DNA of 64,000 bases from a virus, in the IMG/VR virus record IMGVR_UViG_3300046501_000246; one strand, written 5' to 3'. The position numbers and the translations under genes are program-made. The first letter of the stretch is position 1; every line of letters begins with the position of its first letter. The notes below the pieces were generated by a model. That model did no database searches. It was not told where the DNA came from and saw nothing but the letters and a program-made list of their open reading frames with translations. This document shows, one piece after another, positions 2,596-43,374 of the stretch.

Positions 2596-2733
2596 TTAGC
2601 AGCTAGAGCCTTCCCAAGAAGTCCAATCGTCATAAAGTTCAGCGTCTTCGATTGCTTCCGCGATAGTGGTGCGCTGCTCTTCGGTAAGCTCTACGCCGGA
2701 ACGAAGTAGTTCAAGGGCTTCAGTCTTTGTCAT
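2596..2733 (-). CDS. Small protein, 45 aa, paralog of the C-terminal half of 2761-3048
   Basis: Hand-translated MTKTEALELLRSGVELTEEQRTTIAEAIEDAELYDDWTSWEGSSC; aaaagga RBS. Confidence 0.75.
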   Translation of the reverse strand: MTKTEALELLRSGVELTEEQRTTIAEAIEDAELYDDWTSWEGSSC

Positions 2734-2760
2734 AATATATTTCCTTTTTAAAAGTTAATG

Positions 2761-3048
2761 TTAGCACATGGATGATGAAGATACCCAACCGCTTCGGTTG
2801 TAATAATTGTTGTCATCTTCGTCAATTATTTTGGCAATATTTTTACGCTGTTCCGCGCTAAGGTCCTTGCCCGACCTTAGAAGTGCCAGTGCGTCATCCT
2901 TAGACATACGCTCTGGATAATATGTACCGCCCATGCCGTAGGCTAAATCGAAATGAAAGGTTTCGCCGGTACTGTTTGCAATTTCTTCTGCCTCAGTAAT
3001 AAGAGACAGGGCTTGTTCTAGTAGTTTTTCAATTTCTGCTTTAGACAT
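2761..3048 (-). CDS. Phage hypothetical protein ending in WVSSSSMC
   Basis: 95 aa ORF in the minus-strand block. Confidence 0.8.
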   Translation of the reverse strand: MSKAEIEKLLEQALSLITEAEEIANSTGETFHFDLAYGMGGTYYPERMSKDDALALLRSGKDLSAEQRKNIAKIIDEDDNNYYNRSGWVSSSSMC

Positions 3049-5281
3049 TAAATATTTGTTCCATAATTTTTAAAATATTTTCTCTTGGATACTCAGCCAC
3101 TAAGGCGTCACAGTCCATCATATCGTCAACTCTGCGATCAAGAGGAAGCGCCGTAAGTTCAGGCCCATAACCGTTACGGCAGGCATTTTCCCAAGATTCT
3201 TTAATTAATTCAAATAATTCATTCTTCATAAAAATCTTTAAAACACTCTTCACATAAAACTTTTCCATTACCATCCTCGATAAATTCGAGAACGGCGCTT
3301 TCCATCCACCACCCGCAATCGGAGCAGCACTCAATGCTAGGGCGAGCGTTTAAAAGCTCGTCTTCCCAATCCAGACTTTCGTCTAGGTCCAAAGCCTCGC
3401 ATGCCATAACTATGGTCTGACACGTACCGCCAAGGAAGAAGGCCATAAGCTCCCTGTCTTCCTCAAGACTCGGCATGAGCTTCAACTTCTTTCATGATAA
3501 GATCGATCATGTCTTCCTTTATCCGACCGCTGCAATACGCCCGCATCACGATGTATAATTCTTCCATCGTCAGCTTATCCAAGTCTTGGCGATTGATCGT
3601 GCCGTCATGCTTGATAACTATTCGCTTCCCGTTTCCCACGGCAAGCATCGTGCCGTGGTACATCTTCTTGAACGCCATTTATAGCAGGCCTTTTTTGCCG
3701 GTCAGCTTCTCGATGGCGTACTGCTTCTTTGCCTCATCCATCGCAGTGATGGAGCACGCCTCGTTGATCTTATAGACCGGGAGTTGTTTCATATATTTAG
3801 GCATTTCGGTGACGCAGTTGTCGAAAATGTTTTTCGCAATCTGCTGCGTCCTACCCTCTTCGGTCTGCGGCAGGCCTAAACTGTCTCGGTAGACATAAGC
3901 CATCGAACCTAGTAAAGGGATGGCTAATACGACAAACGGCATTACAATCTTTCTATTCATGGCAAGTCCTCCTATGTTATATACTAGAAGGACACTACAC
4001 ATGATTCTTCAACGCAAGTCAAGTATTAAATTTCGTCAATTTGACGATGGCCAATACCAGCAGCGATAAGATCATTAATTAGTTGTTCCTTGGATTCATA
4101 TCCAAGCGTGGTGAAGGCGCTACCACTTTCGTCATCGATTGTAGCGGTAAAGCCATGAAATTCACCCTCTTCATGGTTAAACTCAACCAAGACAGCGACA
4201 GTTTCGACAACAGCGTCTATCTCCATGAGAGCTTCCTCGATCTCATCAAAATTTGCTGGCACTGGATCGCCAAAAAAATTCCTCTTCATTCACCGGTCTC
4301 CTTATCTCTCAGTTCATCAATGGCTTCTTGAACATCATCCATAGATCGATATTCGCCATTTAAAAAGAAACGTTTAAAAGGCCTGTACCACACTTTACAC
4401 ATAATTACGTATCGGCGCGGCGCTAAGGCATGGATAAAATATTTTACCATGATACGCGGATTACGTAATTCCCTTCTTCGATCCAACCCATATTGGCGGC
4501 ATAAGTCATGACAACCCGACGACTACGCTCCATGCTAAGCCAACCGGTACTTAAGAATTCATCAAGAACATTTTGATCCCATTGATCAAGTTCTTTTCTC
4601 TGAACCAAAACGGCATAATCTGAATAATTATTTGTATCGCCAACCTCAACAGATTTGCCAATTTTCTTGGAAAGATAAAGAGCTAGGTCGAATGCATTGA
4701 CGTAACTCGTTACCCTAATCTCCATCTTCAAGCCGTTACCCTCCACGACTCGCCCTCCTCTGATTCTTTAAACAGGTCGAAATCCATGGCATCAAGATAT
4801 CCTGATTCCCAATCTTGATATTCGTCCTGAGACATTTTGTAAGGATTTTCGCCCCGGTCAGACCCAAAGAAATATGCGTCCCAACCTTCTTCAAACGCTT
4901 TGCTCTCCACTTTCCAATTCCTCCTTTTCTTCTCCTTCAACTGAAACGATGTTAACGTTTTTAGCAAAGTATCTGATTCCATTTGACAAGTCAATAGTTA
5001 TACCGTCTGGATAACGCTTAAACAAAGTGCCTTCATATTGGTCTCGATGATAAGCGTCCCAAACGATTGCAGTGGCCATGTCAATAACGCCTCGCTAATT
5101 CTAGTCTAATAATTTCTATCTTAGATGAAGAAGCTAGGCTCTCACCAATTTCAGCGCCATGATCCTCAAGAGCCATCTGCCATTCCAGTGCTGACCGCAG
5201 CTGAGCCGTCGTCATGTCGGAAGCTTCACGACTAAGCCTCTGGCGTCGTTCTTCCCTTGTCTTGTCGTAATAACTCATCAA
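3041..5281 (-). CDS. Run of about 10 short hypothetical CDS
   Basis: Abutting or overlapping ORFs 3041-3334, 3219-3485, 3463-3678, 3679-4002 (N-terminal TM), 4026-4289, 4286-4486, 4444-4746, 4728-4994, 4891-5079, 5081-5281; several starts uncertain. Confidence 0.65.
3994..4022 (-). promoter_or_regulatory. sigma70-type promoter
   Basis: TTGACT (4022-4017), 17-bp spacer, TGTAGT (3999-3994), followed by an aggagg RBS. Confidence 0.6.
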
Positions 5282-23302: not shown

Positions 23303-23950
23303 ATGAATAAATATTGGGCTAGCTTGGGTTGGGGCACAAACCTTACCATTATCACTTATGTAATGGGCGCGGCACTTGGTCTCGTTGATGTGCATAATTT
23401 TAACTATGTCGAATTCTTTGCAATTTGGACCAGTTATGTCTGCACTCTGATGTGCGTGTTCCAAACGAGATGGAATTACCCGCTCGGCGCGGTTTCCACC
23501 ATTCTTTATGCCATTTTGTCTTACAGAGCCGATCTACCTGCGGTCGGCCTGTTCAACATCCTCCTATCGATCAACCTGATTTATGGCTGGTTCCGCTGGC
23601 GCAGCGATGACGTGACCCGCCCCGTTACTAATCCGAATGCGGCTTGGTGGCTCGGATATGTCGGAATCGGGCTTGCCACTTATTTGATCCTGACCATCGT
23701 CAATGGATATTTCGGCTACGAGCAGACTTGGGTAGATGTTACGACAGCTGTAGTCTATGCCGTGGCTCAAGCCATGCTCGACAATAAGCATCGCACATCG
23801 TGGGCCGTATTCTTTGTCCTCAATGTCTTGTCGATCTACCTATACTTCAAGCAGGAAGCTTATTTCGTGGTGATCCAGTACATTTACTTCCTCGGAAATA
23901 CACTTTATGGTCACTTTGAGTGGCGTAAATCTGAAGAAGTCTTCAACTAA
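23303..23950 (+). CDS. pnuC: Nicotinamide riboside transporter PnuC
   Basis: Multi-TM; WNYPLG, YGWFRW, D..T....AQ.ML..K...W..F, YGHFEW. Confidence 0.85.
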   Translation: MNKYWASLGWGTNLTIITYVMGAALGLVDVHNFNYVEFFAIWTSYVCTLMCVFQTRWNYPLGAVSTILYAILSYRADLPAVGLFNILLSINLIYGWFRWRSDDVTRPVTNPNAAWWLGYVGIGLATYLILTIVNGYFGYEQTWVDVTTAVVYAVAQAMLDNKHRTSWAVFFVLNVLSIYLYFKQEAYFVVIQYIYFLGNTLYGHFEWRKSEEVFN

Positions 23951-24008: not shown

Positions 24009-25370
24009 ATGAAATTTCTAATAATTTATGGCCTTATCGCTTTTGGGACGTGGGCCGGATATGACAGAATTTATAGAGAAGCTTGCCCGTCAGAAAAGTT
24101 TTCATACGGGCCGGTCATGGCAGGGATTGTGTGGCCCTTCTTCGCCGGTCTAGCAATTACTAGCGCCACGACCGATAGAATTTCAAAACCAGTCACATGC
24201 GGAAATCTTTTTTAAAAGGAGGAATGTCATGCGTTTGAATAAAAAATGGACCACGGCGCATCTCCTGAATGTTGCCCTATCATCTCCCAAGTTCAGCGCT
24301 GATGTGAATTCCGGTGAAGATGTAATTTCCGTTGACGTTGATAAAAACACAGGCTTCGTGACTTGGTGGCATAATTATGTCAGAGTTACGGAAGGCGATA
24401 TTGCGAATGTATTGGCTCGATGGGCCGTGGAAGGAGTTTAAATTTTATGACAAGAGACGAAGTTAAAGCGAATCGAATCAAGTGGGCCAATTTCCTTCTA
24501 AATAAAAAGAGGAAGAAAGCTATTAGTGTTCTTGATAAAGGCGACGGTGCTAGATGCTGCTTAGGTCATGGCGCGTATTGCTTAGGCGTGCCGCGCCGCA
24601 ACATAGTTAATGGACTGGATAATGCGTGTTTCGAATATGGAGATGAGGACGCAGCATATTCCGCTCCTTCTGAATTGGTAGAGCTTGTCGGACTGTGGGA
24701 CAGTGATGGCATGACTGAAGGCGAGGATTTAGTTATTAATGGTCTTAACTTTTCTTCATTAGCTGGTGCCAATGATGCTGATAGACATTATGCCTTTGAA
24801 ACAGGCGTTGAAAGCAGCGAAATAAACATCACTCCTCAAATGATTGGGACATATCTCCTCACCGTGATCGAAGGCGGCGATGACACTCCGTTTCGCCCAC
24901 TGTCGGAGTACCCTGAATGAGCGCTGGTAAAGCATCGATTTGCCATTGGGATTTGAGGGCCAGATTCTTCACCAAAGAACAAGCCGTTAAAGCTATTAAA
25001 CTTTTACTTGAGGAAGATATTGATTTCGATATTGCGTATTCAGTTGAAATGGGTGATAGTCTGAATCGAACTGCTTATATCATCGATATTGACGGAATGT
25101 CTTGGGCCAATAATCTTGAAACCGTGGCACAAATTTTAAAAGAAGTAGATCACAAATATGAATGAGTCTGAGCTACGCGAAAAGATTATTAAAGTTTTAG
25201 GACCAGAGCTATATGGCGCGTATGACTGCATCCGAGTTTGGGAAGCTTGGTCATATGGTACGATGAGTCAGGATGATTTTGTTCCAGTTGAAGATCGGCT
25301 AGGCGAGATTGCTGAGAGCTTATTAAAGGAGATTTTGGGTGACAACTACGACGGGACTGACAGTAATTAG
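24009..25370 (+). CDS. Five hypothetical CDS between pnuC and the nadR-like gene
   Basis: 24009-24215 (TM), 24229-24441, 24420-24920, 24917-25165, 25158-25370. Confidence 0.65.
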
Positions 25371-26355
25371 CGGCTTGCTTCCAACTCGTGGTCATCAATA
25401 TCTAATTGATTTTGCATCTAAATTCGTTGATCGACTCCACGTCATAGTCTGTATCAGATCGTTTGAGCCTCGTCTCACGCTGGATCGTGCCGAAGTTTTA
25501 GCAAAACATTATGCCGGTACGAATGTAACAGTTCATGAGCATTACGCCGACGATGCGCCTCAAAATGACGATGGCACGACGGAGTTTTGGGACTATTGGG
25601 CCAATCTTGTAGATAAAGCCGTCACTAAACGCAAAAAGATTGATTATTTCTTCGCCTCTGAAAAGTATGGCGCTCGATTTGCTGAAGCTCTTGGCGTCAC
25701 TTTTGTTCCTGTCGATATTGGCAGGGAAATCCTGAGCGTCACAGGAACGCGTGTGAGACAAAATCTCGCTGAGAATTTTAAATATATCCTCCCCGAATAC
25801 CAAGGCAAATTGGCAAAAACGGTTTGCCTCTACGGACAAGAATCGGTAGGCAAAACCACAATGTCAAAGTGGCTCGCCACGAAGCTTGAAGGCCGTTGGA
25901 TTCATGAATGGGCCAGACCTTATCTTGAAGAAGTCGGCGCTGAAGTCACGGATGAAAAAATGTTAAACATTGTGCGTGGTCAGTACGCTGTCATGGTTTC
26001 CGCACCTACTGCATTGTTTAATATAAGAGATACTGATCTCCTTTCAACCATTGGATATTATAAAATCTACGGCGGTAAAATGCCTGAAGAACTTATCCAA
26101 AAATTTAACTTGACAAAAAGCGATCTTTATGTAATGTTAAATGACAATATCCCTTTCGAGCCCGATCCTTTGAGATATGGCGGAGATAAGAGGGAAAGTG
26201 AGATGCAGTTCTGGATCGACCTTCTGGACGAATATGACTGCAAATATCATGTCGTGGAAAGCACTGACATTAAGAAACAGCGCAAAGAAGTTGTAGAAGC
26301 TGTTTACGATTTTTTCACTGATCTACGAGAGATAGAGGAATTCATTCGTGACTGA
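25339..26355 (+). CDS. nadR: NadR-like NMN adenylyltransferase/ribosylnicotinamide kinase
   Basis: N-terminal (T/H)xGH motif PTRGHQYLID; VTGTRVR; P-loop GQESVGKTT; HEWARPY, RDTDLLST, PFEPDPLRYG. Confidence 0.8.
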   Translation: MTTTTGLTVISGLLPTRGHQYLIDFASKFVDRLHVIVCIRSFEPRLTLDRAEVLAKHYAGTNVTVHEHYADDAPQNDDGTTEFWDYWANLVDKAVTKRKKIDYFFASEKYGARFAEALGVTFVPVDIGREILSVTGTRVRQNLAENFKYILPEYQGKLAKTVCLYGQESVGKTTMSKWLATKLEGRWIHEWARPYLEEVGAEVTDEKMLNIVRGQYAVMVSAPTALFNIRDTDLLSTIGYYKIYGGKMPEELIQKFNLTKSDLYVMLNDNIPFEPDPLRYGGDKRESEMQFWIDLLDEYDCKYHVVESTDIKKQRKEVVEAVYDFFTDLREIEEFIRD

Positions 26356-26861
26356 ATACAAAAAAGGTGACAAAGTTATCTTTGTCGATCCAAATCACAG
26401 GTACGGTGGCTGGAATTTTACGGTAGGAAAGATCTACACCGTTGGTGGAAAGTTTTTCCAAGATTTTCCTGACATGTTGGGAATTGAGGCTGACGACTCT
26501 GGTAATCCTAATGGACACGAGTTTGAGTTTTTCGTCTCCGCTCCTGCCGATGAGCAAACGTTCTGTTCTTGGTGGAACAGCTATTATCCTCAAGAATATG
26601 GCCACAACGCCGAATTTAGAAACATTGTGGAACGCCACGCCGAAGCGGCATATCTGGCGGGAAAGAAGTCAAATGCCGTCACATAGCTTATTTTTTCTTT
26701 GGCTTAAGTTACTCTTTATCGATCTCGTATTCTGTGCCGGTATTTTCTTTGGAATATATGGTCTCGCCTTATATTTAGATGTCACGGTTCGTGACTTCGT
26801 TCCACTACTAATCACCGCATTCGCAGTCTATAGCGCAACGGCGCGTTACAAGGAACTTTGA
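26348..26861 (+). CDS. Hypothetical protein and small two-TM protein
   Basis: 26348-26686 and 26673-26861. Confidence 0.6.
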
Positions 26862-26862
26862 T

Positions 26863-27270
26863 ATGAACTACAAATGGCTTACCTTCAACTGCGTCTCGCT
26901 CTTCATCATGGCATTTCTGATCCAATTTTATGACGCAGCTAACTTTATCTGGACCATGGATAAGACTCACATCACGCTGGTAATTCTGGCACTTTATGTG
27001 ACCTGTTCGGCCTATTTAGGGATTATGGGTGATAAAATCAACTTTAAAAAAATTAGATTTCATCTAAATCGCTTTACGATGTGGGGCCTGATTGGCACCA
27101 TGACAGGCCTTATTCTAATGTTCATGGGCGCTGACGATATGGAGGCTTTTAGACAGAATATCTTGACCGAAGTTGGTCCAGTTTTCCTCACTGGCTTGTT
27201 TGGCCTAGCCAGCAGCATTGCCCTTGATTATCAGATCGCGCTATGCTTCGATAATTATGACGAAGTTTAA
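26863..27270 (+). CDS. Miniature MotA/TolQ/ExbB proton-channel family protein
   Basis: Four hydrophobic segments; signature WGLIGTMTG and FLTGLFGL. Confidence 0.7.
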   Translation: MNYKWLTFNCVSLFIMAFLIQFYDAANFIWTMDKTHITLVILALYVTCSAYLGIMGDKINFKKIRFHLNRFTMWGLIGTMTGLILMFMGADDMEAFRQNILTEVGPVFLTGLFGLASSIALDYQIALCFDNYDEV

Positions 27271-27290
27271 TTTTTGAAAGGAAGAGCCTA

Positions 27291-27875
27291 ATGAAAGGCC
27301 CTGTCAAAATTGCATACATTGATGTACTTCAATGCCTTATAGCAGTATTTTTCGTTGTAATTATTCTCTCTACGCCGAAGAAGGAAGAATCAAAGGGAAC
27401 GATCATTGATCCGTCTCAATTCCTAGTCGAAATGACGTGGACCGATGATAGTCCAAACGATGTTGATCTCTGGATGAGTAATCCAAATAACGACATTGTC
27501 TACTATCACACCAGAGAAATCGGCGGCATGACCCTAGACACAGATAATCTAGGCAGAAATAATACTTTTACTGACCCTAGCGGCAACCTAATTGTTAATC
27601 ACACACGCCGAGAGGTAGCCAGCATTAGAGTAGTCATGGCAGGCACTTACACCGTCAATGTAATGCTTTTTGATAAACCAACTAAAGGACCAGAAACGGT
27701 CAAAATCAGGGTCTTCAAGCTAAATCCTTATAAAGATATTATTGAAAAAGTGGTTGTACTGGAAACTGTTAAACAGGAATCCACTATTTTACAGTTCGAT
27801 ATCGACAAGGATGGCAACTTTATTAGTAAGTCTGAAGATGAACAGATTTCTCTCTTTGCGAGGCTAAAGGCATGA
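27291..27875 (+). CDS. MotB/ExbD-like single-TM protein with a YfaP/DUF2135-like periplasmic domain
   Basis: TM with an acidic residue (AYIDVLQCLIAVFFVVIIL); W.D..NDVDLW..P, LDTDNLG, GTYTVNV. Confidence 0.6.
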   Translation: MKGPVKIAYIDVLQCLIAVFFVVIILSTPKKEESKGTIIDPSQFLVEMTWTDDSPNDVDLWMSNPNNDIVYYHTREIGGMTLDTDNLGRNNTFTDPSGNLIVNHTRREVASIRVVMAGTYTVNVMLFDKPTKGPETVKIRVFKLNPYKDIIEKVVVLETVKQESTILQFDIDKDGNFISKSEDEQISLFARLKA

Positions 27876-28339
27876 TCATTCCATCTATCATCATTCTTGG
27901 ACTTCTACTTGTTACAGTTTTTGTCGGCTTCCGATATAATTGGAAGCTCTCACTGGCTATTTTCATTCCAATGCTTTATCTCGGTTATTGGACCGTAGCC
28001 ACTCAGGTTCCAAAATACTTTGGCTATGCCGTGCCAATCAATTTCGCTGAAATGGAAAACCAAGCCCTAATGATCAGCGGTTATGACGGCGGTAAGTCTA
28101 TCTACCTTCTCATCATAGAGAAAGGCGTCAAGGAACCACGTCTCGTCAGCATGCCAAATAATGCTGAAAATAGGGCAATATTTAACCAGCTTACCAAAAA
28201 AATCAAGAACGGCCAAGCCGCCATTATTAAGAAAAACAATAAAAAAGGTAAAATGGGCAAAGGTGAAGGTCAATCCAGTATGGGCGATATCGAAGGCGTA
28301 GAGATGAAGGATCAAAATATCCTTCAGAAGGAAGGATGA
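27872..28339 (+). CDS. Two-TM membrane protein with a basic soluble domain
   Basis: 155 aa; ATGA overlap with the previous gene. Confidence 0.7.
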   Translation: MIIPSIIILGLLLVTVFVGFRYNWKLSLAIFIPMLYLGYWTVATQVPKYFGYAVPINFAEMENQALMISGYDGGKSIYLLIIEKGVKEPRLVSMPNNAENRAIFNQLTKKIKNGQAAIIKKNNKKGKMGKGEGQSSMGDIEGVEMKDQNILQKEG

Positions 28340-29048
28340 TCGTGAAACCTGCATATTACTTGATTGAAAACTGTAAGTGCGAAGCCTATGTCCAAGAAAT
28401 TGCGGTCTGTATTTTCTGGCGCAGATGGTATTGGAAGGCTAAATTTTATTACGAAGGCGAATGCACTCCGTATGACATTTTTGATGGAACAGAATTAACA
28501 GAGCAAGAAGCAATCGACTCTTGCCTCAGTAAATATGGGGAGTTGTTTCCTTCCGATGACTAAAGCTGTTGTAGTTTATCAAGCTGGCGACGAGAAACAT
28601 AGTATTCAAGTCGCCTTAAGTAGGCGAGATGGAAAGACTTTTGTTAGAGAATTTAAGCGCCATACCAGATTCGGAAAGAAGTGGGATACATGGCGCGAAA
28701 CATCTTTTCCTGAAGTGATTGCACTAGGATTTGAAGAATTTAAACGCGTCGATAAAGGTGTCAAAGTTGTCTTACCTATTCCCATTACTACTTAGTGTTG
28801 GCGTCAATATTACATGTTTCATGGCTTTTGCGGCATGGAAGATGGGCCAAACCCCTCGTGACAGAGTAAGACATAAAGTCCGAGGCTCTTATTACGAAAT
28901 CATAGGTTTTGCCACGGTCCAAACCGCTGATGCACTTAAAGATGACGATAGAGTTTTTGTTTATCGAGATATTGACTCTGACGAAATGTATGTTAGAAAA
29001 GATAGTGAATTTGCAGATGGAAGGTTTGAATTAATCAATGCCAAGTAA
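28336..29048 (+). CDS. Three short CDS, the last DUF1653-like
   Basis: 28336-28563, 28535-28795, about 28842-29048 (RHK.RGSYYEIIG..VYR..YVR..EF). Confidence 0.6.
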
Positions 29049-29532
29049 TTTAAAAACTATGATCCTCGTCAAAGCTGCTCTATCTGGCCAATACGACAAG
29101 CAGAAAGTATCTAAGTACGATCACTGTGTCAGGGTTTCTAATAATGCATTAATGCTGGTGAAGCGTTACGACATTGCGGACGAAAAGCTCGCAAGTGATA
29201 TTTATCAAGTCGCACTGCTCCACGACGTACTTGAAGATAGCGATATTACGGCTTATGATCTCCATCTCTATGGATATAGCAATGCCATTATCGACGCGGT
29301 AGAGCTTTTGACTCACTATAACGAAGATGGAAGTTATTCAGACTATATCGATACGCTCTGCGCCAGCGGTAATATCACTGCTCTGATCGGCAAGCTGGCC
29401 GACAATATGGATAATACATCAATTGGACGCAATGCTGATCTTGATGATAAGTTTAAAGCCTACCTCAACAAGAGGTACGCTGGTGTGAGAGAGAAGCTTG
29501 AAGCAGCGATTGAAAAGGTTTTATCAGCATGA
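29038..29532 (+). CDS. HD-domain (p)ppGpp hydrolase-like protein (Mesh1/SAH type)
   Basis: YDHCVRVS, ALLHDVLEDS, VELLTH, KLADNMDN. Confidence 0.8.
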   Translation: MPSNLKTMILVKAALSGQYDKQKVSKYDHCVRVSNNALMLVKRYDIADEKLASDIYQVALLHDVLEDSDITAYDLHLYGYSNAIIDAVELLTHYNEDGSYSDYIDTLCASGNITALIGKLADNMDNTSIGRNADLDDKFKAYLNKRYAGVREKLEAAIEKVLSA

Positions 29533-36285: not shown

Positions 36286-36323
36286 TTGCACGTTAAATGA
36301 AATGGCAAGAGAAGGAGTTTCAA

Positions 36324-37388
36324 ATGCCGGGTATTAAATACGACTATGGCGTCTTCATTGGACGTTTTGCTCCCATCCACGACGGCCACGTCAAAGTAAT
36401 GATGGAAGCGCTTGCGAAATGCGATTATCTTATCGTAGTTTGCGGTTCCGACAACTTGGCGCGGAACACAAGAACCCCCTTTACAGCTTTGGAACGTCAG
36501 GAAATGATTCGTATCGCTACGAATCACGACGAACGGATTCTGCTCACAAGTGTTGGTGATTATCCGTATAACGATAATCTCTGGCTCGCGGAAGTTCAAC
36601 ATGCCGTAAATAGCGCGATTCGTAATCATGAACCAGTAGCGAAATATACAAATCGCGGTTTCAAGGATTACACTCATTCCATCGCGCTCGCCGGTATGTC
36701 GAAAGACGAGACTAGCTTCTATTTGAAACTATTTCCTCAGTACGAGTCAATAGCCGTTAGTCCAGCGGATTACGAAGGCGAAGTGCTTAGCGCTACAGCT
36801 GTTCGAGAATACCTTTTCGCTGGTAACATCGCAACAGCGCCTCACCTTGATCCGAGAGTGAAAACCGCAATCGGTAATCATATTAAGGTTAAACCCGAGA
36901 TTTGGGAAGGTCTGCGATCTGATTGGGAATATGAGAAGGGATATGAAGCGGCATGGGGCCGTGGTCCACACACCACGGTAGACAGCGCAGTGATTCAAGC
37001 TGGTCACATTCTCCTTATTAAACGTGGAAATGATTATGGCCGCGATCTGTGGGCCATGCCGGGAGGCTTCGTTAATCGCGAACGTCTGATTCATGCCGCT
37101 GTTCGTGAACTGCGTGAAGAGACAAGACTGAAAGTACCTGAAAAGGTTCTGTTTGGATCATTGCAAGCCTCTAAGGTTTATGACAACCCTTTCAGGAGCA
37201 ACAGAAGTCACATCATCTCTCATTGCTTCAAGTTTGTTCTTGAAAATGTGAAGGCTGGATTGCCTGAAGTGAAAGGGTCCGACGACGCGAAACATGCTCA
37301 GTGGATTCCTATTTCAATGCTGCCCACTATGCGTGGTCAGTTCTTTGAGGATCACGAACAAATTATTAATGATATTATCAACGCATAA
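36324..37388 (+). CDS. nadM: Bifunctional NMN adenylyltransferase/ADP-ribose pyrophosphatase (NadM-NUDIX)
   Basis: FIGRFAPIHDGH, TPFT..ER, LSATAVR; Nudix box GGFV..RELREET; GSDDA; start at ATG 36324 after aaggag. Confidence 0.9.
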   Translation: MPGIKYDYGVFIGRFAPIHDGHVKVMMEALAKCDYLIVVCGSDNLARNTRTPFTALERQEMIRIATNHDERILLTSVGDYPYNDNLWLAEVQHAVNSAIRNHEPVAKYTNRGFKDYTHSIALAGMSKDETSFYLKLFPQYESIAVSPADYEGEVLSATAVREYLFAGNIATAPHLDPRVKTAIGNHIKVKPEIWEGLRSDWEYEKGYEAAWGRGPHTTVDSAVIQAGHILLIKRGNDYGRDLWAMPGGFVNRERLIHAAVRELREETRLKVPEKVLFGSLQASKVYDNPFRSNRSHIISHCFKFVLENVKAGLPEVKGSDDAKHAQWIPISMLPTMRGQFFEDHEQIINDIINA

Positions 37389-37405
37389 GCGAAGGAGTTT
37401 CTAAT

Positions 37406-38830
37406 ATGCTACTTACACGTTCACTAATTACCAGTACCGACAATTACAAATTTAGCCATCCGTTTGTGGTCCGAAAGGATATTACAGGCGCTACCTCTTA
37501 TATCGAAGCGCGCAAGACGGCTTACACCGACGAAATCGTCTTCTTCGGCCTTCAGGCTTGGATCAAGGAATATCTGACCAAGAGGTTGTCTTGGGTTGAT
37601 ATTGACAGAGCGGAACGCCATGCCAAGTCGGCAATGGTCCCGTTTCACCGCAAATTGTGGGAACGTGTCGTCAATGAATATGGCGGTTATGTTCCGGTAA
37701 AGATTGAAGCTTTGGCCGAAGGCACTGTCGTTAGTCCCGGCGTTGTCGTGGTCCAGGTCAGTTCCGATGCTATGCCTGAAATCGTAGCTGATATCGAGAC
37801 TAGTTTGCTTCGTGCGATTTGGTATCCTAGCACGGTCGCAACACTGAGCCGCAAAATCAAGCAAACAATCGCCAGTGCTTATAAATACACGTCCGATCTT
37901 GACATTAAAGACCCTATGACACTGGCTTGCGCCCTCAATGACTTCGGCGCTCGTGGCACATCATCCGGTGAAACAGCAGCACTTGGCGGATTAGCGCATG
38001 CCATTAACTTCCTCGGTTCCGATACTGTCGAAGCAATTGGTGCGGCTGAAGATTATTATGAACATGATCTTGAGCGAGATGGTCCTGTTATCATTTCAGT
38101 GCCAGCTACCGAACATAGCGTAACGACTATGAATGGCGAAGCAGGGGAATCTGCCTTCGTTGGACGTGTAATTGATACGTTTACCGAGATGGGATATCCA
38201 ATTATCTCAATCGTTGGAGATAGTTACGATCTTGACCGCTTCGTGTCTCAGTACATCGGCATGGATCATAAGGAAAAGATTGAGGCTCGTGACGGCTGGA
38301 TCGTGGTCCGACCTGATAGTGGTGAACCGACCGAAATCGTACCTCATGTTCTAGAACTTCTGGATGAAAAGTTTGGCAGCACGATCAACTCTAAGGGCTT
38401 TAAAGTATTAAATCCTAAAGTTCGTGTCATCCAAGGCGACGGCGTAAATCTCAATTCTATTGAAGATATTCTTGAAGCTGTGGAAGATTTTGGCTTCTCA
38501 GCCGAGAATATTTGCTTCGGGATGGGCGGACAGCTTTTGCAGGCTCCAATGCGCGATGATTTCTCTTGGGCCATGAAGACGAACGAAATTCGTATCGGAA
38601 ATGAACGAATCGAGGTTCAAAAGAAGCCTAAGACCGACATGAGCAAGTCGAGCAAGGGTGGCCGTCAAGCCGTGGTTCACAACGGCACCAAGCTAGTGTC
38701 TGTCAAGTTCAGTGACTTGGCTAATGCTTCACATGGGACCGAGAATTACCTAAAGCCTATTTGGAACACAGGTAAATGGCTGAAGCTACCAATCACGTTC
38801 ACAGAGGTCAGGGCTAACGCTTCGATCTAA
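37406..38830 (+). CDS. nadV: Nicotinamide phosphoribosyltransferase
   Basis: TDNYKFSH, FFGLQ, WYPSTVAT, DFGARG, PATEHS, DSYD, VVRPDSG, IQGDG, FGMGG. Confidence 0.92.
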   Translation: MLLTRSLITSTDNYKFSHPFVVRKDITGATSYIEARKTAYTDEIVFFGLQAWIKEYLTKRLSWVDIDRAERHAKSAMVPFHRKLWERVVNEYGGYVPVKIEALAEGTVVSPGVVVVQVSSDAMPEIVADIETSLLRAIWYPSTVATLSRKIKQTIASAYKYTSDLDIKDPMTLACALNDFGARGTSSGETAALGGLAHAINFLGSDTVEAIGAAEDYYEHDLERDGPVIISVPATEHSVTTMNGEAGESAFVGRVIDTFTEMGYPIISIVGDSYDLDRFVSQYIGMDHKEKIEARDGWIVVRPDSGEPTEIVPHVLELLDEKFGSTINSKGFKVLNPKVRVIQGDGVNLNSIEDILEAVEDFGFSAENICFGMGGQLLQAPMRDDFSWAMKTNEIRIGNERIEVQKKPKTDMSKSSKGGRQAVVHNGTKLVSVKFSDLANASHGTENYLKPIWNTGKWLKLPITFTEVRANASI

Positions 38831-40292: not shown

Positions 40293-42404
40293 ATGATTTC
40301 TAATAACGCGTTAAGTGCCGACGTGATTGTTCACGGCGCGGCAGACACAGGCAATTTTTCCATCGACGCAAATGGAAAAGCATTCAAAATCCTAATCGAC
40401 GGCCTTTATTCCAATAAAATTCAAGCCATCATCAGAGAGCTAAGTTCAAACGCTTATGACGCTCAAATTGCAGCTGATCGTAGCGACTTCGCTTTCGAGG
40501 TTCAGCTTCCCAATCTCCTTGACCCTATTTTCTCGGTTCGAGACTATGGCACCTCATTGTCTCACGAAGACATTATGGGCCTTTATACCACCGTGTTCCG
40601 CAGCACGAAGGAGAATACGAACCTAGCGATTGGCAAGTTTGGCCTCGGATCGAAGACGCCTTTTGCTTACACCGATAGCTTCACCGTCACTGCGTTTATG
40701 CGCGGCACGAAGCGTGTCTATGGTGCTTACCTTAATCCTCAAGGCATTCCTCAAATCTCGCTCATGATGTCAGAAGACACAAACGAGCTAGATGGCTTGA
40801 TGGTATCGTTCCCTGTCAACTCTAAGGATTGTGAACGCTTCAGGCAGGAGATGGAGCGCGTCTTAGAGGGTTTCGACGTTGTTCCCAACATCCGTGGCGG
40901 CGAGGTAAAACTCAAAACGCGTGGCGAGCCTTTTTATACCGGTTCAAATTTTGAAATCTTTAAAGGCGTCGGCAAGGCCCGCGCCAAGCAAGGTTGCGTA
41001 ATTTATCCCATTGATACTGATGCCTTGGGCAAACTGACCTATGCTCAGAGGGATATTTTAACATCTAATATTCTCATTGATTTTCCTATAGGGCAACTCG
41101 ACGTAACGCCGAGCCGTGAATCTCTCAGCTATGACGACGCAACGATTCAAAATATCGTTGATATGGCTGATTGTGTCAGTGAAGAAATTACCAAGGACTA
41201 CAAGGAAAAGTTCTCCAAAATCAAGACGATGCATGAGGCGCGCTGCTTTGCTGCTGAGCATCAACATTCTGTTATTGCATGTGTCAAGAGCTATATCGCC
41301 CATCTGAGATTTAACGATAAGCCGGTTAACGTGGCATCAGCAATGAATCGCGACAGGATCAGACAAGTCTACAACGTCGCGATTCATTATACCAGCGCTT
41401 ATGATTTTAGAAATAAAAACCTTAAATTTAGTGAGAAGGAATACACAACTAAGTGGAGTGTCGATAGTGATACTATGTTCTTGGTTGAAGATTATACCAA
41501 AGCTAAAAAAGTTAAATTAATTAATGCTAGGGTCAAAAATAATATCGGAGACCACGATAACGTTGTCTGGATCAGAGACTATGGTGCAAGTCCTGAACAA
41601 TTAAGAAAATTAAAAAAGCTTTTAGGTTATCCGCCGAAGTTCTACCGCCTAGAAGATTTCAATCTTCCTGAGCGCGAAAAGCCCGATCCATCATCTTATC
41701 TGCCAAGGATTAAACATAGCGAGGTAAGAGTTGTCGGCTTTGGGATAGGTGATGCTGTCCTAGACCTGAAAAACTTAACGCCTGACACTCGTTATATTAT
41801 TACACACAACGGAAGTTTGTGGGTAGACGAGTCTTACGATAAATACGTTTACAACCACACAATACATAACCTGTTCGAAGATAAGACGAATATTTTTGTT
41901 GTCAAGCAGAAGTCTCTTAATAAGGTCAAAGCGGCTGGCGTGACAAACGCGCTGACCGAGGCTCGCGACGAATTGGCCAAGGGTCTAGATTTCAAGTCTT
42001 TTGTTGAGAAAAGCAATCTAGAAAAGGAAATGAATCATTGGCTCAAAAATTACGCCGAAGAATTAAGCGTTTTAGAATATGAAAATGATACTTCATTCAA
42101 AAAAGTGCTTGACTTTATGCGTAGATATGCTAAGAGCGAGGATGAACAAACAGAGAACGCGAAAAACATTCTGCTTTGGCAGCAACTTGTCCCGCCCCAA
42201 GTTTATAGCGAAAAGATAGCTGAATTCACGATAGAAGTTTCTTCTGATGAGGCCCTAAAACATTGGGTCACAAAGATCAAAGAAGATTATCCGTTGATCG
42301 ACAAATACATTATTTCCTATGATGACGGCACGTTCTTAAATAATTTGAATAATATTTTTAATTATATTAAAATGGTAGATAGAGAGAATGAGCAACATGC
42401 ATGA
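40293..42404 (+). CDS. rIIA: RIIA-like protein (GHKL ATPase N-terminus)
   Basis: LIDGLYSNK..AIIRELSSNAYDA, RDYGT, STK..GKFGLGSKTPFAY, PSRESLSY; directly upstream of rIIB. Confidence 0.88.
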   Translation: MISNNALSADVIVHGAADTGNFSIDANGKAFKILIDGLYSNKIQAIIRELSSNAYDAQIAADRSDFAFEVQLPNLLDPIFSVRDYGTSLSHEDIMGLYTTVFRSTKENTNLAIGKFGLGSKTPFAYTDSFTVTAFMRGTKRVYGAYLNPQGIPQISLMMSEDTNELDGLMVSFPVNSKDCERFRQEMERVLEGFDVVPNIRGGEVKLKTRGEPFYTGSNFEIFKGVGKARAKQGCVIYPIDTDALGKLTYAQRDILTSNILIDFPIGQLDVTPSRESLSYDDATIQNIVDMADCVSEEITKDYKEKFSKIKTMHEARCFAAEHQHSVIACVKSYIAHLRFNDKPVNVASAMNRDRIRQVYNVAIHYTSAYDFRNKNLKFSEKEYTTKWSVDSDTMFLVEDYTKAKKVKLINARVKNNIGDHDNVVWIRDYGASPEQLRKLKKLLGYPPKFYRLEDFNLPEREKPDPSSYLPRIKHSEVRVVGFGIGDAVLDLKNLTPDTRYIITHNGSLWVDESYDKYVYNHTIHNLFEDKTNIFVVKQKSLNKVKAAGVTNALTEARDELAKGLDFKSFVEKSNLEKEMNHWLKNYAEELSVLEYENDTSFKKVLDFMRRYAKSEDEQTENAKNILLWQQLVPPQVYSEKIAEFTIEVSSDEALKHWVTKIKEDYPLIDKYIISYDDGTFLNNLNNIFNYIKMVDRENEQHA

Positions 42405-43374
42405 ACTAGGTTTTATTCTGACCGCAAAAGGCGTCCTTTTGTTTTTTGACGGTAAGTCAGTACCCGTTGATAAGACACATCTTTATTTCGAAGACATTGT
42501 TACCGAACTGAAGAAGGGTCACGGCAATTTTGATGTGGCCCGCGTCAAGGAACTTTCAAATATTCCTGAGACGATCAAAGGTAAACTCTTTGGCGACGTG
42601 ACTGTCACAGATGGCCAGATTTACTACAAGAACAGACCGCTTCACAATACTTTGACCACTAAGATGATTGAAGTCATGAGAGAAGGTTGGGACATTGCCA
42701 TTTGGGCTAACTTCTTGAATAATGTGATGAAGAACCCTTCACAAACTGCTATTGACGAACTGTATCTGTTCCTTGAAGCGGCGCAAATGCCTCTAACATC
42801 AGATGGTCACTTCCTAGCATTTAAGAAGGTAAATAATGACTATACCAGTATTTACGACAACAAAACAGATAACAGTATTGGCTCAAAGCCTTCTATGCCT
42901 CGTGAAACGGTCGATCCCAACCGTAATTCTACTTGCAGCCGTGGTCTACATTTTTGTGCTCATAGTTACTTAACTCATTTTGGTGATGCCTCAAAATCAC
43001 GTGTTGTTGTCGTTAAGATCAATCCCGCTGATGTTGTGGCTATCCCTTCGGATTATGCTAATGCCAAGGGCAGGGCTTGGACCTACGAAGTCGTAAGCGA
43101 AATCGATAATCCCGGCGACGGCGAGCGTGAAAAGCGTTTTGATGTTGCGGTAGATGATTCGTGGGATGCGCCAGAGGAAGACACAGCTGAACTAGCTCTT
43201 GGTGATACTCCTAGTGATCTTCTCTTTGGCGACATTTACACGGCACAGGAAATCCTTGACAAAGTGAATGAAATCGGTTCTATCAGGGGTGCGGGTCGAG
43301 CCCTCAGAATTGCTAAATCCACATTTGGCGATTGGGTCAAGAAGGCGAAGGAAATCACTTCACAGGAGGATTAA
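42388..43374 (+). CDS. rIIB: RIIB-like protein
   Basis: ELYLFL, LTSDGHFLAFKKV, CSRGLHFC, INPADVVAIP.DY..KGR..YEV. Confidence 0.88.
   Translation: MSNMHELGFILTAKGVLLFFDGKSVPVDKTHLYFEDIVTELKKGHGNFDVARVKELSNIPETIKGKLFGDVTVTDGQIYYKNRPLHNTLTTKMIEVMREGWDIAIWANFLNNVMKNPSQTAIDELYLFLEAAQMPLTSDGHFLAFKKVNNDYTSIYDNKTDNSIGSKPSMPRETVDPNRNSTCSRGLHFCAHSYLTHFGDASKSRVVVVKINPADVVAIPSDYANAKGRAWTYEVVSEIDNPGDGEREKRFDVAVDDSWDAPEEDTAELALGDTPSDLLFGDIYTAQEILDKVNEIGSIRGAGRALRIAKSTFGDWVKKAKEITSQED

Follow-up and report, generated by a model that had tools for sequence, protein, structure and literature searches.

The stretch of DNA examined here, 64,000 nucleotides (nt) of a T4-like phage contig of ~181 kb (IMG/VR record IMGVR_UViG_3300046501_000246; hereafter the window), carries at positions 26863-28339 a trio of genes, which we call A, B and C. 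A and B are each preceded by a purine-rich ribosome-binding site, and a small open reading frame (ORF) coding for two transmembrane (TM) helices lies directly upstream (Table 1). An initial annotation had placed all four ORFs at these positions. It had read A as a MotA/TolQ/ExbB-like subunit without a large cytoplasmic domain, B as a single-TM partner with an aspartate at the conserved position (YIDVL) and a domain of neither OmpA nor ExbD type, and C as a coupled third membrane protein. These readings are borne out by the comparisons described below.

A is a protein of 135 residues with four hydrophobic TM helices. The cytoplasmic loop between TM2 and TM3 spans about 13-18 residues and holds no domain, the C-terminal tail measures ~10 residues, and the distribution of charges fits the N-in four-TM topology of MotA. 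TM3 contains the motif GLIGTMTG (with T79) and TM4 the motif FLTGLFG (with T110 and G111). When a profile of the A family (A3, 81 members) is compared with the sequences in the PDB, the region TM3-TM4 matches MotA (E 4.6e-7), ZorA (4.7e-7), PomA (2.5e-5), TolQ (3.8e-5) and ExbB (9e-3). An hhalign comparison of A with TolQ of Escherichia coli gives a probability of 89% (E 2.3e-6) and sets T79 on TolQ T145. The Pfam family PF01618 (MotA_ExbB) is matched by 70 of the 81 aligned members; relatives at three of the loci fetched for comparison (numbered with L throughout) score above its cut-off (L007 32.7, L006 30.3 and L009 26.2 bits), and chromosomal copies reach 32.8 and 34.9 bits. The ZorA models of PADLOC match the window protein weakly (E 2.6e-4). 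By these sequence comparisons A is placed in the MotA/TolQ/ExbB superfamily.

An exhaustive HMMER search recovered 158 cluster representatives of A, all of which are 92-175 residues long and therefore describe a distinct 'mini' family. Among 138 unique sequences G75, G78, T79 and Q124 are invariant; D33 and T110 occur in 130 and 134 of them, respectively. Structures from E. coli have shown that T145 and T178 of TolQ form a polar ring beside the essential Asp23 of TolR, and that T148 and T181 of ExbB play the same role in the Ton motor (PMC12215075). The pore-lining threonine of the penultimate TM helix, which sits in a G-x-x-G-T motif (TolQ T145, ExbB T148), is present in A as T79. As a separate observation, the Geminicoccaceae lineage of L151 carries an A enlarged to 253 residues.

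B starts with a short basic tail of six residues, which suggests an N-in orientation, and has a single TM helix (residues 4-27) with an aspartate at position 11. The helix reads KIAYIDVLQCLIAVFF and its MotB counterpart KIAYADFMTAMMAFF. Asp11 is invariant (13 of 13 and 120 of 120 unique sequences in two counts) and is presumed to be the ion-binding residue; hhalign sets it on MotB D32 and TolR D23, with a probability that is low owing to the shortness of the segment, and the Pfam family MotB_plug is matched by four of 74 B members (best E 9.5e-4). In a structural model built from a 74-sequence alignment, with a predicted local distance difference test (pLDDT) score of 89.4, the helix is followed by a linker of 16 residues and a β-sandwich at residues 44-181. 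No plug helix appears in this model between residues 28 and 43.

The modelled sandwich adopts the fold of TerD. VIA-align finds TerD structures first, with Z 10.0 for 2qz7_B (130 aligned residues, root-mean-square deviation 3.7) and 9.4 for 2kxt (138 aligned), the next match being at 6.4, and Foldseek also returns TerD (E 7.5e-4). On the sequence level, Pfam TerD is matched by none of the 74 members, DUF2135 by one (E 0.012) and PPC by six, and neither OmpA nor ExbD domains of Pfam match B. The initial annotation had described this domain as YfaP-like, which holds as a weak likeness, the fold being that of TerD. Between B and E. coli YfaP, hhalign reports 75.8% (E 2.3e-5) over 84 columns and a pattern W..D.DL..P.G ... 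PGxYxV is shared; DUF2135 clusters lie near B at 0.89 in an atlas feature search, and the Joint Genome Institute annotation gives the name YfaP to two B homologues. Matches of a narrow B profile (A2) to ribosomal protein S6 (E 0.02-0.4) were judged to be chance. The columns W50, D57, D59, L82, D85, G88 and E108 of B are invariant and D86 is nearly so (116/120). The invariant acidic residues D57, D59, D85 and E108 together with D86 suggest a metal site in the sandwich, and judging from these residues it may be a site for Ca2+.

C, with 155 residues, begins with a TM hairpin (residues 2-19 and 24-50) whose helices are separated by a loop of five residues. Its soluble part comprises a βββαβ domain (65-121), a disordered Lys/Gly-rich linker (124-138) and a short conserved C-terminal strand; the model has a pLDDT of 71.9. 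The N-terminal tail is acidic and the loop between TM1 and TM2 basic. This charge pattern, together with fusions to a lysozyme, places the soluble part in the periplasm, so that C probably has an N-out/C-out topology with its small domain facing that compartment. The fusions occur in five viral loci, all from one clade of marine T4-like viral contigs, where C continues at its C-terminus into a phage lysozyme of family GH24 (E 3e-49). By eye, the catalytic E...D...T pattern of this part looks intact (FEG..AYQDS.GVWTIGYGHT). The atlas also contains an 86-member viral cluster of similar architecture, a 297-residue protein with a Phage_lysozyme domain. Candidate matches for C itself were set aside: VIA-align returned generic helical hairpins only (Z 7 or less), Foldseek nothing below E 0.2 apart from weak OB-like rows, and an atlas feature score of 0.77 for DUF4811 is below the trusted level.

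Are these three genes neighbours by accident? Their adjacency is more than chance. Of 172 loci fetched, 168 could be scored, and 148 of these have the order A-B-C. In a further 17, A and B are followed by a two-TM ORF that the seed profile of C missed, and six loci are cut by a contig end. B adjoins or overlaps A in every locus with an A-family ORF; across the fetched loci this is nearly always an overlap, and the gap between B and C is 0-1 nt. Even where B has diverged to 23-27% identity the trio stays together, a picture of conserved synteny and translational coupling. Two of the features on which the initial annotation had made its reading depend, the aspartate of B and the gene order elsewhere, are retained.

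The distribution of the trio is broad. Searches with tblastn recover A, B and C, in this order and annotated as hypothetical throughout, from several kinds of phage that infect Rhizobium and Sinorhizobium: 68-kb phages, T4-like Pootjesviridae of ~155 kb, a 171-kb phage, and the temperate phage 16-3 with its relatives. In 16-3 (L176, NC_011103.1 22651-24512) A is p038, B is p040 and C is p042. Pattern scans based on a single marine subgroup of B picked up 247 stretches of viral DNA and a further 103 from genomes of bacterial species. The chromosomal trios include those of a complete Ca. Levibacter genome, of SAR116 single-cell genomes and of megabase contigs of Geminicoccaceae. There the trio forms a three-gene island between unrelated metabolic genes, which puts these copies outside prophages. 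The trio thus occurs in both phages and chromosomes and is not specific to phages; besides SAR116, Ca. Levibacter and Geminicoccaceae, other bacteria have it on their chromosomes as well. In a FastTree phylogeny of B, rooted by midpoint only, most of the diversity lies in viral contigs and the bacterial copies form two or three nested clades. Alphaproteobacteria and their phages exchange the trio as an accessory cassette that is complete in itself.

What might such a cassette do? The reading that we favour, with a confidence somewhat better than even, is that A, B and C form one inner-membrane complex of the MotAB/PomAB/ExbBD-TonB/TolQRA kind. An ion-conducting complex of MotAB/ExbBD type is the best reading because it draws together the homology, an invariant aspartate facing conserved Thr/Gly helices and the fixed coupling of the genes. 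A ring of A subunits, presumably a pentamer, would surround the TM helices of B, presumably a dimer. Protons or another cation would pass via Asp11 of B and the polar Thr/Gly faces of TM3 and TM4 of A, and this flow would move A relative to B. The output would be passed on by the TerD-fold sandwich of B on its 16-residue linker, perhaps in a Ca2+-dependent manner, and also by C, with its small domain, flexible Lys-rich linker and conserved tail facing the periplasm and the peptidoglycan. C would then stand in place of TonB or TolA and the whole would be a miniature energiser of the Ton/Tol type. Since there is almost nothing on the cytoplasmic side (a loop of ~13 residues in A, a tail of six in B, a loop of five in C), the output must be periplasmic, and the lysozyme fusion of C suggests that it reaches the peptidoglycan. 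For the trio we infer a 5:2 stoichiometry, ion flow, rotation and the type of ion. C would likewise dock on the A-B motor, the target would be the envelope or the peptidoglycan, and the phage might benefit by, for example, envelope stabilisation, superinfection exclusion or modulation of lysis. A complex prediction with four A, one B and one C, in which C was scored, gave 0.00 against a mark of 0.32; it was run without controls and speaks neither for nor against binding.

Several observations weigh against this proposal. The A protein of the window itself scores 21.0 bits against PF01618 (E 3e-4, residues 72-120), below the cut-off of 22.9. The pore-lining threonine of the last TM helix is present in the A family but not in the window protein: the column of TolQ T178, ExbB T181 and PomA T186 holds Thr in 136 of 138 relatives and Gly111 in the window, with T110 adjoining. 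The window clade departs at further well-kept positions of A, with N69 where others have E or D and D122 where others have K, and at near-invariant positions of the B helix, with Q14 and C15 in place of F and N. The kink prolines of MotA, TolQ and ExbB (TolQ P138 and P187, MotA P173 and P222) have no conserved counterpart in TM3 or TM4 of the A family; the column seven residues before T79 holds L, V or I, and any Pro in TM4 is seen in only three of 138 sequences. In B, with neither an OmpA-like or ExbD-like domain nor a plug helix, anchoring and gating are left unexplained. For C no fold or family match was found in Pfam, PHROGs, VIA-align or Foldseek, and the consensus of its family, which shows no conserved pattern of His or Ser, lacks the SHLS/His motif with which the single TM helix of TolA or TonB docks on the edge of the motor (PMC12204202). 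The joint departures in A (G111, N69, D122) and B (Q14, C15) would fit a direct contact between the two proteins.

A comparison with described machines helps to place the trio. Among solved structures the best profile matches of A are the 5:2 rotary motors PomAB and MotAB (8gqy, 8brd, 6ykm). A shares the four-TM N-in topology of MotA and PomA, its G-x-x-G-T in TM3 and T-T-L-x-G in TM4 match GMIGTL and LLTTLYG of PomA, the B helix KIAYIDVL...AVFF parallels KIAYADFM...MAFF of MotB with the Asp in register, and the genes of the two subunits are likewise adjacent and coupled. In MotA and PomA, however, a torque-generating cytoplasmic domain contacts FliG, and A has only the short TM2-TM3 loop in its place, besides lacking conserved prolines in TM3 and TM4. 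B differs from MotB and PomB in having a TerD-fold sandwich instead of a plug helix and an OmpA-like peptidoglycan-binding domain. The trio also differs from flagellar stators by its non-flagellar context and its third subunit.

With ExbB-ExbD-TonB and TolQ-TolR-TolA the trio shares a three-gene order of channel, Asp-bearing single-TM partner and third membrane-anchored protein with a low-complexity linker into the periplasm. It also shares with them a periplasmic rather than cytoplasmic output, and T79 of A aligns with T145 of TolQ. ExbB and TolQ have three TM helices and an N-out orientation, whereas A has four, is N-in and does not carry their cytoplasmic helices. The domain of B has a fold different from that of ExbD and TolR, and C is a two-helix hairpin without the SHLS/His motif and without a C-terminal domain of TonB or TolA, neither of which was found in it. 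Genes for Pal, TolB or a TonB-dependent receptor are not linked to the trio at the loci examined. The logic of the trio is nevertheless that of Ton/Tol rather than of a flagellar stator, though in sequence and topology A is nearest to PomA and MotA.

TerD proteins (2qz7, 2kxt) share the β-sandwich fold with the domain of B. They have no membrane anchor and are taken as cytoplasmic, unlike the membrane-tethered, periplasmic domain of B. ZorAB of the Zorya defence system (8qyd, 8qyh; PMC11946911) is non-flagellar and linked to phage-host conflict as well, and the A profile matches ZorA as well as it does MotA. A does not have the long cytoplasmic tail of ZorA, B does not have the peptidoglycan-binding domain of ZorB, there is no ZorC or ZorD, the neighbours are genes for salvage of nicotinamide adenine dinucleotide (NAD) and small unknown genes, and the trio is carried by phages themselves. 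A further parallel is offered by the TolQ-like motors with vWA 'transpore-helix' force transducers, recently predicted and uncharacterised systems that also have an unconventional periplasmic output protein (PMC12204202); their partner is a vWA protein, as against the TerD fold and C of the trio. A literature search found no description of the trio. The survey of periplasmic force transducers just cited treats vWA transducers and makes no mention of TerD, DUF2135 or lysozyme, a survey of MotAB relatives (PMC12505986) reports diverse 'generic ion transporters', and neither describes a TerD-linked B or the C of the trio. In databases, PHROGs has no family for A, C or the small upstream ORF and gives B a weak match to an unknown family only, NCBIfam yields just sub-threshold hints of MotP and MotB, and a search of the phage collection at the DNA level returned no match.

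Could the trio work without applying any force? A and B might form a plug-less MotAB-like channel, a regulated cation leak that lowers or tunes the proton motive force of the host with C as its regulator, so as to time lysis, block DNA entry of competing phages or stop motility. The missing plug helix between the TM helix and the sandwich of B would fit such a leak, given that MotAB with its plug deleted leaks protons and arrests growth. So would the lack of any cytoplasmic or obvious peptidoglycan-anchoring domain to apply torque against, and the presence of rIIA on the same phage. Yet ExbD and TolR likewise do without the MotB plug and are part of working motors. B and C show strong conservation of their periplasmic domains, including the invariant acidic cluster of B, and this speaks for work in the periplasm over and above gating. 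Free-living bacteria also retain chromosomal copies, although a constitutive leak would come at a cost to them. We consider this account unlikely. An effect of the trio on proton motive force or on superinfection, as envisaged in the initial annotation, is a matter of pure surmise.

Two other explanations were weighed. In a lysis device, A and B would act as a depolariser resembling a holin or pinholin, and C as a membrane tether or activator of a cell-wall hydrolase. All functional mass of the trio faces the peptidoglycan, and both the five fusions of C to an apparently intact GH24 lysozyme and the viral cluster of 297-residue proteins with a Phage_lysozyme domain are in keeping with it. The fusion is confined to a single clade, however, and the genes around the trio are of early, replication and accessory type; neither in the window nor at the other loci does an endolysin, holin or spanin adjoin it. 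Rhizobium phage RHph_N3_19 has a separate GH24 lysozyme of 166 residues 17 kb from its trio, the helices of C in the window are strongly hydrophobic and in this unlike signal-anchor-release domains, and bacterial chromosomes retain the cassette as an island on its own, all of which makes a lysis device very unlikely. Still less credible, to the point of being nearly dismissed, is a decoy, in which a domain-less A, or A with B, would mix into the rings of host MotA, ExbB, TolQ or ZorA and poison them. A does retain just the membrane core common to these proteins and matches the ZorA models of PADLOC, if weakly. But A always comes with its own B and usually with C, the conserved residues peculiar to its family (D33, Q124, W5) differ from those of host stators, its identity to any host-type stator is very low, and the cassette is chromosomal in bacteria without a phage context. 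The jamming of host motors suggested in the initial annotation is unlikely too, since the trio comes with a B partner of its own and is also present in cells that have no phage.

If A and B do form a working unit of the 5:2 type, as in the complex we favour, the 135-residue A would represent the minimal membrane core of this motor class and would lend itself to structural and mechanistic studies of the conversion of ion flow into rotation. No stator, Ton, Tol, Gld or Zorya system described so far has an output side of this make-up, a TerD-fold domain together with C, and this points to an undescribed envelope function. The carriers comprise lytic and temperate rhizobiophages, many marine viral contigs and abundant marine Alphaproteobacteria such as SAR116, a breadth which suggests that the trio may matter for the interplay of phages and hosts in soil and sea. 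The temperate Sinorhizobium meliloti phage 16-3, with its genes p038-p042, offers a tractable genetic system. A bolder version, which we hold to be rather unlikely, would make the trio the smallest ion-driven rotary motor in nature and the first to be met with on phage genomes. In it, the Ca2+-binding TerD-fold domain and the tethered C would couple rotation to mechanical or enzymatic work on peptidoglycan, and phages would employ it to reshape or protect the envelope of the cell they infect.

Table 1. Coordinates of the trio, its predicted parts and associated features (positions refer to the window unless a locus number is given)
Feature	Position	Strand	Description or basis
Gene A	26863-27270	+	ORF of 135 residues; ribosome-binding site AAGGAA at 26850-26855
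A residue 111, departure of the window (G for T)	27193-27195	+	Column counts
Gene B	27291-27875	+	ORF of 194 residues; ribosome-binding site GAAAGGAAG at 27276-27284
Asp11 codon in the TM helix of B	27321-27323	+	Sequence
B residues 14-15, departures of the window (Q14, C15)	27330-27335	+	Column counts
Predicted periplasmic TerD-fold β-sandwich of B, residues 44-181	27420-27833	+	Model, VIA-align
Gene C	27872-28339	+	ORF of 155 residues; ATG overlaps the stop of B (ATGA, 4 nt)
Small two-TM ORF	26673-26861	+	62 residues; TGA at 26859-26861, one base before the ATG of A
NAD-salvage genes upstream of the trio	23303-23950, 25339-26355	+	Pfam / phrog_3462
C-lysozyme fusion loci	L081:735-1622, L085:2982-3869, L092:3670-4569, L084:2657-3553, L078:3684-4534		
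Proteostasis neighbours of marine viral trios	L171:580-1230, L048:1905-2414, L019:4142-4459, L010:4429-6882		

In this phage the trio is flanked by NAD-salvage genes on one side and small unknown genes on the other, in a region of early or accessory character. The window codes for RIIA, a primase, a helicase, DNA and RNA ligases, NAMPT, a NadM-Nudix protein and a Lon-like protease. Two NAD-salvage genes lie shortly upstream of the trio, one coding for a PnuC-type transporter of nicotinamide mononucleotide (Pfam E 3e-30), the other for a NadR-like adenylyltransferase/kinase (phrog_3462, E 4e-69), and the NadM-Nudix protein and NAMPT follow 9 kb downstream (36297-38830). A protein of 164 residues with a weak HD-domain match (E 1.2e-3, below cut-off) is encoded ~700 nt downstream of the trio (29038-29532, + strand) and is kept in L003 and L004. 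The rIIA homologue (phrog_612, E 3e-119) and then an ORF of 328 residues occupy 40293-43374 on the + strand. The rII genes of T4 protect against the membrane-depolarising Rex exclusion system, and their anti-exclusion role implies that the phage of the window has further genes concerned with membrane energetics. No T4-type late promoter TATAAATA is found near the trio, the two in the window being the number expected by chance, and a scan for promoters and terminators gave no convincing signal within it.

The small two-TM gene that ends one base before A had been noted next to the operon in the initial annotation. Its position stands, but as a fourth component of the module it was rejected, being seen in the window and one related contig (L004, 2450-2635) only. 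Two genes separate it from A in that contig, and it is not present in L003, the closest relative of the window. The similarly sized p041 of phage 16-3 was considered as a counterpart and does not match.

In 16-3 itself the trio is interrupted, by the 96-residue p039 between A and B and by the 61-residue two-TM p041 between B and C, and a gene for a trypsin-like periplasmic protease, p036, is located just upstream. Many marine viral loci have a ClpP-like protease or Hsp20 directly upstream of the trio, ClpS directly downstream and ribosomal protein S21 nearby; these proteostasis neighbours may reflect the synteny of a lineage rather than a functional link. On the Geminicoccaceae chromosome of L151, an actin-like gene of the Volactin family (2650-3654, Pfam E 6e-74) is found ~1.6 kb upstream of the trio, whose A begins at 5238. 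L148, a contig binned as a metagenome-assembled genome of Legionellales, is probably a mis-binned phage and not a bacterial chromosome. It carries small ORFs and an ORF of 887 residues, all on one strand, and the latter is a member of a family that recurs as a neighbour at 36 loci.

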